Positions 3,996-8,996 of a stretch of 8,996 nt of DNA are shown piece after piece; position 1 is the first letter of the stretch, and each line of letters begins with the position of its first letter. The DNA comes from a virus. Lineage: Duplodnaviria; Heunggongvirae; Uroviricota; Caudoviricetes. The DNA lies in IMG/VR virus record IMGVR_UViG_2579778899_000011, positions 1 to 8,996 of that record. One strand, written 5' to 3'. The position numbers and the translations under genes were made by a program. The notes beneath the pieces are model-generated. The model made no database searches. It saw only the letters and a program-made list of their open reading frames with translations, and had not been told where the DNA came from.

Positions 3996-4013
3996 TATGT
4001 GAGGTAGAAAGTG

Positions 4014-4607
4014 ATGAATAAAAATATTGCCGCGACGGGCAAGGGTGACGCACGTCATGTGAAAAAATTCTGTGATATTCGTGATCTGGTCGTTCTGCGC
4101 TTTGATAGTGTGAACGTTCGCGTGGTGTATCTGAACGGCGATCCGTGGTTTGTTGGCGCTGATGTGTGTGCGGCGCTGGAAATTAGCAACGTTACCGATG
4201 CTGTTTCAGTTCTGGATAGCGATGAGGTAATGACCCTAGCTTTAACCGAGGGTCATTCAGGTAAGCGTGGTGGTGCCAGAAGTTGGAATGTTGTATCAGA
4301 ATCAGGTTTTTACAAGTTGATCGCCAGAAGTCGCAAAGCTGTTAATCCTGGCACGTTCGCCCATCGTTTCAGTAATTGGGTATTCAGAAATGTGATACCG
4401 GGTATCAGAAAAACGGGGGCTTATGGTATCCCGTGGGGCGCATTACAGGATTTTTCCCGCCGCAAAGAGCAATACCAGATAAGTGCCAGTGAGAAGGGGA
4501 GGGCGCTACAGGCATGTAAGCGCAAAAAGCGTGAACTGGAGGAGGAAGAAAAAAGGCTGATACGTGAATATCAGCCTGAGTTTTACTTTGGTGAGCGTAT
4601 TCAGTAA
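4014..4607 (+). CDS. Bro-N domain protein (phage antirepressor-like N-terminal domain) with a charged, coiled-coil-like C-terminus
   Basis: ATG at 4014 with a GAGGTAG Shine-Dalgarno at 4001-4007. Bro-N signatures: F...IR...DGDPWFVGADVCAALEISN...SESGFYKLIARSRKAVNPGTFAHRFSNWVFRNVIPGIRKTGAYG. C-terminus KRKKRELEEEEKRLIREY. No KilA-C/Ant C-terminal domain is apparent. Confidence 0.7.
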   Translation: MNKNIAATGKGDARHVKKFCDIRDLVVLRFDSVNVRVVYLNGDPWFVGADVCAALEISNVTDAVSVLDSDEVMTLALTEGHSGKRGGARSWNVVSESGFYKLIARSRKAVNPGTFAHRFSNWVFRNVIPGIRKTGAYGIPWGALQDFSRRKEQYQISASEKGRALQACKRKKRELEEEEKRLIREYQPEFYFGERIQ

Positions 4608-6264: not shown

Positions 6265-6579
6265 ATGAAAAAGAAAAATTCTGGCTTTACTGCCAGCGGT
6301 CACGCTCGGCCTGAAATCCGCCCCGGTGATATTTTCCGGGATAAATACGGCAGCACGATAACGATTAAAACCGTCGATGATTTTCGTGTGACCTATATCC
6401 GCGAAGGTTATGCGCATCCCTGCGTGTCGTCACATATGCGCTTTGACAGGGAGTTCACCCTGGTAAGCAAAGCACCACCAGCAGAATTAAGCGACATCGA
6501 CAGAATCATGCGCGTTACAGGAATGGAACGCATTAAGGCAGTACGTGAAATTATTCGTGAACGGGGAAAGGCAAAATGA
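6265..6579 (+). CDS. Small protein, DUF4222-like, of the kind found immediately upstream of replication genes in P4-like islands
   Basis: 104-aa ORF with a GGAG Shine-Dalgarno about 8 nt upstream. Motif PGDIFRDKYGSTITIKTVDDFRVTYIREGYAHPC. Its stop overlaps the start of the next gene (ATGA at 6576-6579). DUF assignment is from memory. Confidence 0.35.
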   Translation: MKKKNSGFTASGHARPEIRPGDIFRDKYGSTITIKTVDDFRVTYIREGYAHPCVSSHMRFDREFTLVSKAPPAELSDIDRIMRVTGMERIKAVREIIRERGKAK

Positions 6580-8702
6580 AGCGCGCACCAAACTTAAAGC
6601 ACCAGCCAGCCGACAAAATGACGGAGGTTATCATCTTTGCGGGTAGTGATGCGTGGAGCCATGCGAAAGAGTGGCAGGAATGGGCAGGTAAACATATTGC
6701 CGCCGACAATGTGCCGCCTGTCGTTCTGTCAGATGAACACCTGAAAGATATTACTGGTTATCAAATTATTGATGATAGCCGTCAGTGTGTGCGTATTTAC
6801 CGCGCAGGGCACATCACTGAACGTAGCCTCACACAGATCGTCACGTTGCTGGCTGTGGCTGGCGTGAAGACCGTATACGAATACGCGGGGATAACTGACA
6901 CCAGCCCGGCGGATTTATCCGACCAGTTGCCTCGCCTCAAAGACGAATACGAGCGCGGGGAAAGTCTGGTGTTGCCCTTAAAGAAAAAAATCACAGAAAG
7001 CCCGGGTGATGATGAATTAAAGCCCCGCGTTGAAAGCCGCGCCGATGGTGTTTTCTGGGTAACGCCAAAAGTGGATAAGCAGTCAGGCGAAATTATCCGG
7101 CCTGAAACGTGGTTATGCTCCCCGCTTGAGCTACTGGGAACGGGGACAATCGGCAAAGAGCATTACCGCGTGATGCGCTGGAAAAAGCCAGCAAACCATG
7201 ACGTCATCACGATGGCGGTTCCGTGCGGTGGCATTGGCGACCGTGACGGCTGGCGGCTGCTGAAAGACCACGGACTGAACGTGACAACCAACGGTAAATA
7301 CAGGGCTATCCTGGCTGACTGGATGCAGTTAAGCGGAAACCATGAGGAATGGCAGTTAAGCACAACAACGGGCTGGCATTTTGGCGCGTACATCATGCCG
7401 GACGGTTCGGTCATTGGTGATTGCGAAAAGCCAGTCCTGTTTACCGGAAAAACGGCTGCCGTTAATGGTTATTCCGTGGCAGGAACGGCGGAGGGCTGGC
7501 GCGATACCGTGGCGCGACTGGCTGGTGGTAATCCGTCCATGATGCTGGGTGTGGCGGTATCGCTATCCGCACCATTAATCGGGCTGGTGGGCGCTGATGG
7601 CTTCGGGGTACATCTTTTCGAACAGTCATCAGCAGGTAAGACCACAACGCAGAACATCGCATCAAGTTTATGGGGGGAGCCGGACGCACAACGGCTGACC
7701 TGGTACGGCACAGCGTTAGGTATCGCCAACGAAGCAGAGGCACACAATGACGGGCTTTTACCCCTGGATGAAATAGGTCAGGCCGGAAACGCGCGGGAGG
7801 TGTCCACGTCAGCCTATACGCTGTTTAACGGTTCAGGGAAATTACAGGGGGCAAAGGACGGCGGCAACAGGGAGATAAAACACTGGCGAACGGTGGCAAT
7901 CAGTACCGGAGAAATGGACGTTGAAACATTCCTCAAAACGGAGGGGATAAAAGTCAAGGCGGGGCAGCTTGTCCGTCTGCTTAACGTGCCGATGGAAAAA
8001 GCCACGCAGTTTCACGAATACAGCACCGGAAAGGCACACGCAGACGCGTTAAAGGATGCCTGGACAGCAAATCACGGGGCGGCTGGTCGTGAATGGGTTA
8101 AATGGCTGGCAGACCACCAGCAGGAGGCAAAGGACGCGGTAAGGGCATGCCGTGAACGGTGGCGCAATCTGATACCGGAGAGCTACGGCGAACAGGTTCA
8201 CCGCGTGGGTGAGCGATTCGCCATACTGGAGGCCGCGCTTGTGCTTTCCGGTCATGTTACTGGCTGGGATGTTCAGGCGTGCCGCGATGCCATACAGCAT
8301 AATTTTAATGCCTGGGTGAAGGAATTCGGTACGGGTAACAGGGAGTTTAAACAGATGGTTGAACAGGCAGAGGCTTTTTTAGCGTCGTTCGGATTCAGCA
8401 GATACCTTCCGTGGCCCAACACCGACGAGCGTGATTTACCGATTAAAGAGCTTGCCGGATACAGAAAGGGGAGTATCAGAAACGAAGATGACGAGTTCCG
8501 TTTTTACACGTTCCCACATGTATTTGAGGGTGAGATAGCACAGGGATTTAATCCGTCTCACTTTGCCCGCGCGTTGAGTGCTGCCGGAATGCTGGAAGCG
8601 GGTAACGATCGCCGTTACAAGAAAAAGGCGCTCGGCAGGATTGGGGGGAAGCAGCATGTTTTTTACGTGCTGATGTTCCAGCCAGAAAGCGAAGAAGATT
8701 AA
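6576..8702 (+). CDS. Replication initiator, a P-loop NTPase (primase/helicase-like; DUF927 or SF3-like family candidate)
   Basis: 708-aa ORF. Walker A EQSSAGKTT at residues 349-357 (nt 7620-7646). Walker-B-like LLPLDE about 40 residues downstream. A large N-terminal domain has no motif I can name. Lies immediately upstream of an iteron-rich origin-like region. Confidence 0.65.
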   Translation: MKRAPNLKHQPADKMTEVIIFAGSDAWSHAKEWQEWAGKHIAADNVPPVVLSDEHLKDITGYQIIDDSRQCVRIYRAGHITERSLTQIVTLLAVAGVKTVYEYAGITDTSPADLSDQLPRLKDEYERGESLVLPLKKKITESPGDDELKPRVESRADGVFWVTPKVDKQSGEIIRPETWLCSPLELLGTGTIGKEHYRVMRWKKPANHDVITMAVPCGGIGDRDGWRLLKDHGLNVTTNGKYRAILADWMQLSGNHEEWQLSTTTGWHFGAYIMPDGSVIGDCEKPVLFTGKTAAVNGYSVAGTAEGWRDTVARLAGGNPSMMLGVAVSLSAPLIGLVGADGFGVHLFEQSSAGKTTTQNIASSLWGEPDAQRLTWYGTALGIANEAEAHNDGLLPLDEIGQAGNAREVSTSAYTLFNGSGKLQGAKDGGNREIKHWRTVAISTGEMDVETFLKTEGIKVKAGQLVRLLNVPMEKATQFHEYSTGKAHADALKDAWTANHGAAGREWVKWLADHQQEAKDAVRACRERWRNLIPESYGEQVHRVGERFAILEAALVLSGHVTGWDVQACRDAIQHNFNAWVKEFGTGNREFKQMVEQAEAFLASFGFSRYLPWPNTDERDLPIKELAGYRKGSIRNEDDEFRFYTFPHVFEGEIAQGFNPSHFARALSAAGMLEAGNDRRYKKKALGRIGGKQHVFYVLMFQPESEED

Positions 8703-8724
8703 TTTTTTCTCGCGTGTAGGGTGA

Positions 8725-8880
8725 AAATTTTGCGGGTTATGCGGGTTATTTCTGTGGATAAATCAGCATCCATATGATTATTAAAGGAATGACAGAAAAA
8801 TCGTAACCCGCAAAATACCCAAAATAACCCGCAAAACGGCAGTTATAACCCGCAAAAGTGCGATTATAACCCGCAGAATT
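8725..8880. repeat. Origin-of-replication-like iteron array with a DnaA box and an AT-rich spacer
   Basis: Four direct repeats of (t)ataacccgca(a/g)aa at about 8804, 8824, 8845 and 8866, spaced roughly 20-21 bp. Inverted tandem copies gcgggttat at 8731-8749. A perfect DnaA box TTATCCACA on the minus strand (plus tgtggataa, 8753-8761). AT-rich stretch at 8750-8800. Confidence 0.6.
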
Positions 8881-8938
8881 TCACCGTAAGGGTGTAAACA
8901 AGCGTAACCATCAACGTTAAAACCGGAGAGCAGACAGC

Positions 8939-8996
8939 ATGACAGCACAGATAGCGGCTTACGGGCGGCTGGTGGCTGACCCGCAGTTAAAGACCA
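8939..8996 (+). CDS. 5' end of a gene running off the window; N-terminus resembles the start of SSB-type OB-fold proteins
   Basis: ATG at 8939 preceded by GGAGAG. MTAQIAAYGRLVADPQLKT resembles the N-terminal strand of SSB family proteins. Only 19 residues are visible. Confidence 0.25.
   Translation, partial: MTAQIAAYGRLVADPQLKT

Follow-up and report, generated by a model that had tools for sequence, protein, structure and literature searches.

A candidate iteron replication origin directly downstream of a DUF927-type rep gene in a capsid-forming PICI-type satellite of Escherichia coli

In the iteron plasmids pSC101, R6K (gamma origin), RK2, P1 and F, the origin combines direct iterons, an AT-rich region and a DnaA box. 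Satellite P4 requires two cis-acting iteron regions, ori and crr, which lie apart from each other. The P4 repeat TGTTCACC was taken from the annotation of NC_001609, which places crr immediately 3' of the alpha gene and ori at a distance of ∼4.5 kb.

SaPI origins contain 6-12 iterons and an AT-rich centre, with at least two iterons on each side in opposite orientation, and SaPI Reps are self-loading helicases that work without a helper loader (PMC9371898). The C-terminal domain of SaPI Rep recognises iterons directly downstream of rep, and DUF927 joins the SCCmec helicase Cch to the Rep of SaPIbov1 (PMC7581432). As cited in these two papers, the SaPI origin data, of the SaPIbov1/SaPI1 type, trace to Ubeda 2007. 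The same origin organisation is found in Gram-negative PICIs, for which the pri-rep-ori of EcCICFT073 was validated on a thermosensitive plasmid (Fillol-Salom 2018, PMC6092414). Iteron sequences are listed in Fig. 2a of that paper, where the word AACCCGCA described below may already be drawn. Capsid-forming PICIs have been defined as elements of 10-18 kb with int, regulation and replication modules and their own capsid, protease, portal, connector, HNH, TerS and TerL genes, tail and lysis genes being absent (10.1101/2025.02.11.637232).

The stretch of DNA analysed here (the window, 8,996 nt) encodes, upstream of rep, a tyrosine integrase, an AlpA-type regulator, a Bro-N protein and a DUF4222 protein. 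Between the stop codon of the 708-aa rep ORF at 8702 and the ATG of a ssb-like gene at 8940 lies an intergenic region (8703-8939), most of which (8703-8938) had been read in a preliminary description as an iteron origin placed directly downstream of rep. Six exact copies of AACCCGCA occur in the whole window and every one lies inside 8731-8875, the first repeat starting 25 nt past the rep stop codon. Two copies are on the minus strand (8731 and 8740, spacing 9 bp) and four on the plus strand (8805, 8826, 8847 and 8868, period 21 bp), in agreement with the inverted tandem copies and the four direct iterons at about two helical turns described earlier. The full repeat unit approximates TAACCCGCAAAA. 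None of 200 mononucleotide-shuffled windows reached six copies of one 8-mer in 150 nt. The symmetry of the two arms is extended by an outer inverted repeat that is absent from the preliminary description, and an inverted repeat of 16 nt with 94% complementarity was also listed for it. The features of the region and of its relatives are collected in Table 1.

Table 1. Coordinates of the origin region in the window and of related features in other loci (L numbers denote loci; positions prefixed with one are those of that locus)
Feature	Position	Strand	Remarks
rep, 708-aa DUF927 helicase-type initiator	6576-8702	+	Pfam and phmmer
Putative specificity cassette: Rep codons ∼602-708 and whole iteron region	8379-8916	+	DNA breakpoints in L009
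Outer inverted repeat, left half, TAGGGTGAAA	8717-8726	+	pairs with 8879-8888
Left arm, two tandem inverted iterons	8727-8749	-	cores 8731-8738 and 8740-8747
AT-rich centre, putative DNA unwinding element	8749-8803	.	base composition and stability
DnaA box TGTGGATAA (TTATCCACA on minus strand)	8753-8761	-	adjoins left arm
Right arm, direct iterons TAACCCGCAAAA	8804-8878	+	starts 8804, 8825, 8846, 8867
Degenerate fifth direct copy TACCCAAAA	8816-8824	+	inside right arm
Outer inverted repeat, right half, TTTCACCGTA	8879-8888	-	pairs with 8717-8726
Island ssb gene, start	8940-8996	+	runs off window; annotated single-stranded DNA-binding protein in near-identical genomes
Second module, distal	L001 28712-28865		8.5 kb downstream, ∼270 bp inside right end
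Second module, proximal	L004 3234-3390
Second module, proximal	L010, L011, L013, L015, L019, L021, L023, L025, L028		∼+160 to +320 after rep
Small ORF, examples	L004 3421-3672, L005 3306-3656, L007 2792-3037, L008 7285-7542

The spacer that separates the two iteron arms is 56 nt long with 70% A+T. Its GC content reaches a minimum of 0.275 at 8760-8799 and the least stable 25-mers within 8600-8996 start at 8759-8778, which bears out the AT-rich spacer of the preliminary description. A motif, TATGAnTnnAAAGGAA, at 8771-8790 is common in alignment to the AACCC-type origins (L002-L006, L010 and L025). It differs from the IHF consensus, which was not found in the AT-rich gap of 23 of the 25 loci compared below. 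No RNA family of Rfam was matched in 8500-8996. A 55-aa ORF on the minus strand (8781-8948) was considered as a gene and rejected, because the indels of relatives in this stretch are not multiples of three.

Rep homologs and their flanks were gathered with one genome per species, and 330-420 nt past the rep stop codon were read. Of the 25 loci compared, six belonged to E. coli and 19 to other Enterobacterales. Repeats were present directly 3' of rep in all 25, so that the homologous elements do carry them, in the same layout and with differing words. Two or three tandem inverted copies (∼+25/+34, range +22 to +45) were found in 24 loci, L009 having one. Direct copies were spaced 11/21/21 bp in 17 loci, a pattern that recurs in every iteron class; the exceptions were the window and L005 with 21/21/21 bp and six loci with three direct copies only. 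An inter-arm gap of 45-65 nt with 65-87% A+T was present in 25 of 25 loci, all with DUF927 Reps. In the AACCC group the alignment showed invariant TAACCC cores and variable 9-nt spacers. The iteron word was AACCCGCA in E. coli, AACCCAC in Winslowiella and Tenebrionibacter, GAACCACG in Cedecea, GAACCAAC in many Serratia, Rahnella, Yersinia, Citrobacter and Pantoea, GAACCGR in Rahnella woolbedingensis, and GGGAYAAG in E. albertii, Serratia oryzae and Pantoea rodasii.

A natural domain swap is offered by locus L009 of E. albertii. Its Rep is 92-100% identical to that of the window up to ∼residue 583 and 32-38% identical past residue 600. At the DNA level the window and L009 match at 93% over 6574-8378, lose all homology over 8379-8916 and match again at 91% from 8917 on, so that the exchanged block consists of the C-terminal Rep codons together with the entire repeat region. 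The L009 repeats are GGGACAAG in a layout as in the window. Across all loci, the difference between within-class and between-class identity was 0.31-0.43 for the last ∼100 residues of Rep and 0.06-0.12 for the helicase core. The comparison supports the C-terminal ∼110 residues of Rep as the probable determinant of iteron specificity, the word changing with them, and with this the earlier proposal that the iteron word marks the specificity of the replicon. The DUF4222 protein was considered as reader of the iterons and rejected, its similarity not following the iteron word: that of L004, which has AACCCGCA, shares 83% identity with that of CFT073, which has TGTCTACC, and the window and L004 proteins, with shared iterons, are 51% identical. 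The upstream genes and the Rep N-terminus of the window also differ from those of L001, its closest relative and a near-identical island copy (95-98% identity to the window), and their origins are 98% identical, which argues against other readers.

Rep consists of an N-terminal module (∼1-140), a DUF927 core and a C-terminal specificity module. DUF927 was the sole Pfam domain matched (E = 1.4e-45). The Walker A GKT lies at residues 354-356, and G354, K355 and T356 were invariant across 38 homologs. DUF927 homologs number at least 2114. Phmmer aligned residues 213-599 to the solved staphylococcal chain 8tch_A, annotated 'Pathogenicity island protein' (E = 7e-14), and also matched Rep to Cch, the helicase of SCCmec (5dgk_A, E = 3.5e-4). 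An AlphaFold model of full-length Rep built with the 38 homologs had a mean pLDDT of 59.7, with values below 50 in the C-terminal domain; modelled alone, this domain gave a pLDDT of 45. The low-confidence C-terminal models have a strand-helix-helix-strand-strand order, which is compatible with the winged helix expected of a SaPI-type Rep but unreliable, and a profile of the domain searched against the PDB returned only a chance match (E = 0.96). The N-terminal module was modelled as a confident alpha/beta domain (pLDDT 80-91) and had no Pfam match. This module (window 6576-7000) is shuffled independently of the helicase core: megablast found no homology between the Rep N-termini of the window and L001, and the first ∼160 residues of the window Rep share 40% identity with the N-terminus of the EcCICFT073 Pri-Rep, an unrelated protein of D5_N type.

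The perfect DnaA box of the preliminary description, at the edge of the left arm, is the sole exact match in the window, and a composition model gave an expectation of 0.002 exact boxes in the 237-nt intergenic region. At the homologous position in 36 viral-collection loci of the AACCCGCA lineage, TGTGTATAA was found in 21, TGTGGATAA in five and TGTGCATAA in one; since all three match TTATNCACA, 27 of the 36 fit that pattern, the commonest change falling on its degenerate N. The box was degraded in the other nine (TGTATATAA in six, TGTGTGTAA in three), and its flanks vary about as much as the box itself. Among the 25 loci a consensus box is confined to the E. coli AACCCGCA lineage. Of the 19 loci of this architecture outside E. 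coli, 18 have at least two mismatches, which is chance level; Tenebrionibacter has a near match (AGTGGATAA) at this position. Two papers on PICI and SaPI origins mention DnaA 0 times (PMC6092414, PMC9371898), and a literature search on DnaA boxes linked them to SGI1 only. Being lineage-specific and missing from these 18 relatives, the box is probably accessory at most and not a core requirement of the origin, and the part of defining element that it had been given is not supported. That it functions as an accessory or regulatory site of this lineage is possible but less likely than not. The validated EcCICFT073 ori has a one-mismatch DnaA box, also AGTGGATAA (L008 7159-7167), which overlaps an iteron-like GGTAGATA and may be due to chance.

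Many relatives carry extra class-specific iterons past the core origin, ∼+160 to +320 after rep. This second module is made up of one direct and two inverted copies (∼21 bp) followed by three tandem copies (8-9 bp) and, read on the opposite strand, repeats the layout of the core origin. The tandem triplet adjoins a TATATA-like element, which is directed towards a small ORF or, where the module is distal, towards the attachment site. The distal module of L001 contains three inverted iterons at 21-22 bp, a ∼78-nt AT-rich gap and three tandem iterons at 8-9 bp. The partner module was ∼300 bp away in nine viral-collection contigs and 7.8-10.7 kb away in eight loci (seven viral-collection contigs and L001). 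Downstream sequence of 11 kb or more was available for L001 and L056 only, and both had the partner; L062, with 10.5 kb, had none. No second module was found within ∼330 nt past rep in nine minimal loci, and in the window it is absent along with the small ORF. Origin-like sequences of the viral collection that have no DnaA box, and that resembled a 'second subfamily', were rejected as a variant origin, being the second module on the other strand.

The small ORF (83-116 aa, no Pfam match) lies between origin and ssb in many islands. The window retains only its last ∼25 nt (∼8905-8930), which indicates that a deletion removed the ORF and the adjacent second iteron module.

Set against the SaPI origin, the window shares the position directly downstream of rep, the opposed iterons around an AT-rich centre, a DUF927-family helicase and, on a comparative basis, a probable iteron specificity in the Rep C-terminal domain. 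It differs in its Gram-negative host, in iterons of 9-12 bp where SaPIs have penta- or hexanucleotides, and in asymmetric arms, one made of tandem copies at 9 bp and the other of copies 21 bp apart; a DnaA box, an extra N-terminal module of Rep and, in relatives, the second mirror-image module are further differences. With EcCICFT073 the window has in common the island backbone, the slot DUF4222-rep-ori-(small ORF)-ssb and an AT-rich region between two iteron sets, but the EcCICFT073 Rep core is a D5_N/DUF5906/Pox_D5 primase-helicase and not DUF927, and its iterons are TGTCTACC. None of the four 2018 PICIs sampled contained AACCCGCA. EcCICFT073 and EcCIIHE3034 have a D5_N-type primase-helicase with TGTCTACC iterons, EcCIRM13514 and locus L007 have TGTTCACC iterons, the P4 type-1 repeat, and EcCI042 has a RepA-family helicase with AAGTGAGG iterons. 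Because each Rep type in the DUF4222-rep-ori-ssb slot carries its own iterons, the slot is interpreted as a cassette site for at least four initiator types.

P4 resembles the window in being a satellite replicon with a helicase-type initiator and short iterons, in the two separated iteron regions that the window's relatives have, and in its TGTTCACC iterons, which are found in sister islands at the slot of the window origin. Its alpha-type primase-helicase is distinct from the DUF927 Rep, and so is its word; AACCCGCA occurs once in P4, at chance level, and neither ori nor crr of P4 has a DnaA box when one mismatch is allowed. The comparison with P4 and PICI origins that had been proposed thus gave agreement with the PICI layout and disagreement with both the P4 and the EcCICFT073 words. 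The direct iterons at about two helical turns, the adjacent AT-rich region and the DnaA box are likenesses to iteron plasmids. On the other hand, the window initiator is a helicase and not a RepA-type dimer/monomer (Rep_3-like) protein, the inverted copies lie downstream of rep where plasmids have them at the rep promoter, the DnaA box is unconserved, and a search of the plasmid collection did not find the replicon. The term 'plasmid-like' of the preliminary description accordingly holds for the repeats and fails for the initiator and for the plasmid-collection search.

The region is best read as the origin of replication next to rep in a capsid-forming satellite of PICI type that is inserted into the E. 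coli chromosome, with a probability put at about 0.82 on sequence comparison. It is a member of the known SaPI/PICI kind and not one of the characterised examples. Since its layout fits the published SaPI/PICI origin and the Rep core matches 8TCH and Cch, and with iterons that are common in E. coli islands, the earlier suggestion of a new satellite replicon family was dropped; that of a satellite iteron origin is supported by the layout conserved in the 25 loci. The conservation of the layout, the co-variation of iteron word and Rep C-terminus and the homology to SaPI-type helicases were established by such comparison. In the mechanism proposed, the C-terminal ∼110 residues of Rep would recognise the 9-12-bp iterons TAACCCGCAAAA and Rep would assemble on both oppositely oriented arms. 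It would then melt the AT-rich 56-bp centre and load itself as the replicative helicase, as SaPI Reps do, with single-strand binding protein provided by the ssb gene directly downstream. Initiation would take place within the rep-proximal region; because relatives have a second module of identical design, it might also take place at the other module. By analogy with ori and crr of P4, a second module at the far end of the island may cooperate with the rep-proximal one by looping or handcuffing. An extended form of this reading is a bipartite origin, with two mirror-image modules, ∼300 bp apart or in opposite parts of the island, bridged by Rep as in P4 and, in the E. coli lineage, a host DnaA site that couples the helicase to the host initiator. 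This extended form is rather doubtful; if it held, the Rep C-termini and their iteron words, in at least six natural combinations, would be a ready set of orthogonal origin specificities.

The presence of two modules also allows the roles to be reversed, the rep-proximal module being a crr-like cis enhancer or a handcuffing or copy-control site and initiation occurring at the mirror-image module. P4, with its crr directly 3' of alpha and its annotated ori far off, speaks for this, and so do the relatives with a partner module at either distance, among them L001 with 8.5 kb between the two. Such a reversal is nevertheless unlikely: the rep-proximal repeats are the functional ori in SaPIs and EcCICFT073, the rep-proximal module is in every locus, including the nine minimal forms without a second one over the ∼330 nt examined, and with a shared design either module could fire. 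A plasmid-type, DnaA-dependent origin, in which Rep on the iterons and DnaA on the box recruit host DnaB-DnaC as in pSC101, R6K, RK2, P1 and F, would account for a perfect box adjoining an AT-rich region, for the retention of TTATNCACA in 27 of 36 related loci with variation mainly at N, and for the 21-bp iteron spacing. It was judged very unlikely in view of a Rep that is a P-loop DUF927 helicase, homologous to the self-loading SaPI Reps and not of RepA type, of a box that is missing or degraded in the loci given above and varies about as much as its flanks, and of the silence on any DnaA role in PMC6092414 and PMC9371898.

It is scarcely plausible that the repeats are mainly transcriptional operators, used for autoregulation of Rep or control of ssb and morphogenesis genes. 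The terminator scan found none after rep, for which reason rep and ssb are probably co-transcribed, and in longer relatives three tandem iterons lie directly upstream of a TATATA-like -10 element and the small ORF. That promoter-proximal cluster is missing from the window, however, where the promoter scan gave a single weak promoter-like site where 0.6 would be expected by chance. A conserved AT-rich centre flanked by opposed arms characterises origins and not operators, and the initiator is homologous to origin-binding helicases. Origin and operator roles can also coexist, and a transcriptional role of Rep binding alongside the rep-proximal origin is possible because the iteron triplets of relatives abut the promoter-like TATATA.

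The window is DNA of the E. coli chromosome. A megablast search with the 347-nt ori-ssb stretch gave matches in 868 of 5426 complete E. coli genomes, nearly always in the chromosome and at up to 6 places per genome. Neither the plasmid nor the phage collection contained a meaningful match to the replicon; one 2.2-kb 'phage' fragment had 67% identity. Past its origin, L001 encodes ssb (Pfam SSB, E = 8.5e-16), ProQ, major capsid, prohead protease, portal, connector, HNH, TerS and TerL, and its island gene set has no tail and no lysis genes. This gene content is that of a capsid-forming PICI, several of the L001 genes being pseudogenes. The same iterons are common among E. coli islands, including the O157:H7 capsid-forming island L004.

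For these widespread capsid-forming E. coli satellites, whose replication is not mapped in the literature examined, the comparison offers a concrete candidate origin and a putative specificity determinant (Rep ∼600-708 with TAACCCGCAAAA). The natural exchange of C-terminus and iterons suggests orthogonal Rep-ori pairs that can be tested, and would explain the coexistence of several such islands in one genome. The published picture of PICI origins is extended only by the second module and by the lineage-specific DnaA box.

The L001 island sits between the split halves of a prophage terL (10297-11325 and 29142-29885, the 3' half resuming ∼18 kb downstream). In the window the satellite is likewise inserted in a prophage large terminase gene (993-2193), with HNH-TerS-TerL at the window start, and homology to uninterrupted terL ends at ∼2020, the junction. 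The terL/int junction is shared by 36 of the 5426 complete E. coli genomes; in most of the 856 other matching genomes only the first 65-71 nt align, within annotated terL. Attachment sites never occupied by prophages were selected in the preprint on capsid-forming PICIs (10.1101/2025.02.11.637232), for which reason integration into a phage packaging gene may be noteworthy. Directly upstream of int, the decamer TGTGTATTGC occurs in tandem at 2150-2159 and 2162-2171, 12 bp apart, and it is repeated near the right end of the island (L001 ∼29050-29072); these copies are probably arm-type binding sites of the integrase. The Bro-N gene, intact in the window (4011-4607), is split in L001 by an IS100-family element (13855-15660), and the L001 protease, portal and connector genes are pseudogenes. 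Because of the interrupted gene and the pseudogenes, the L001 copy is considered to be decaying.
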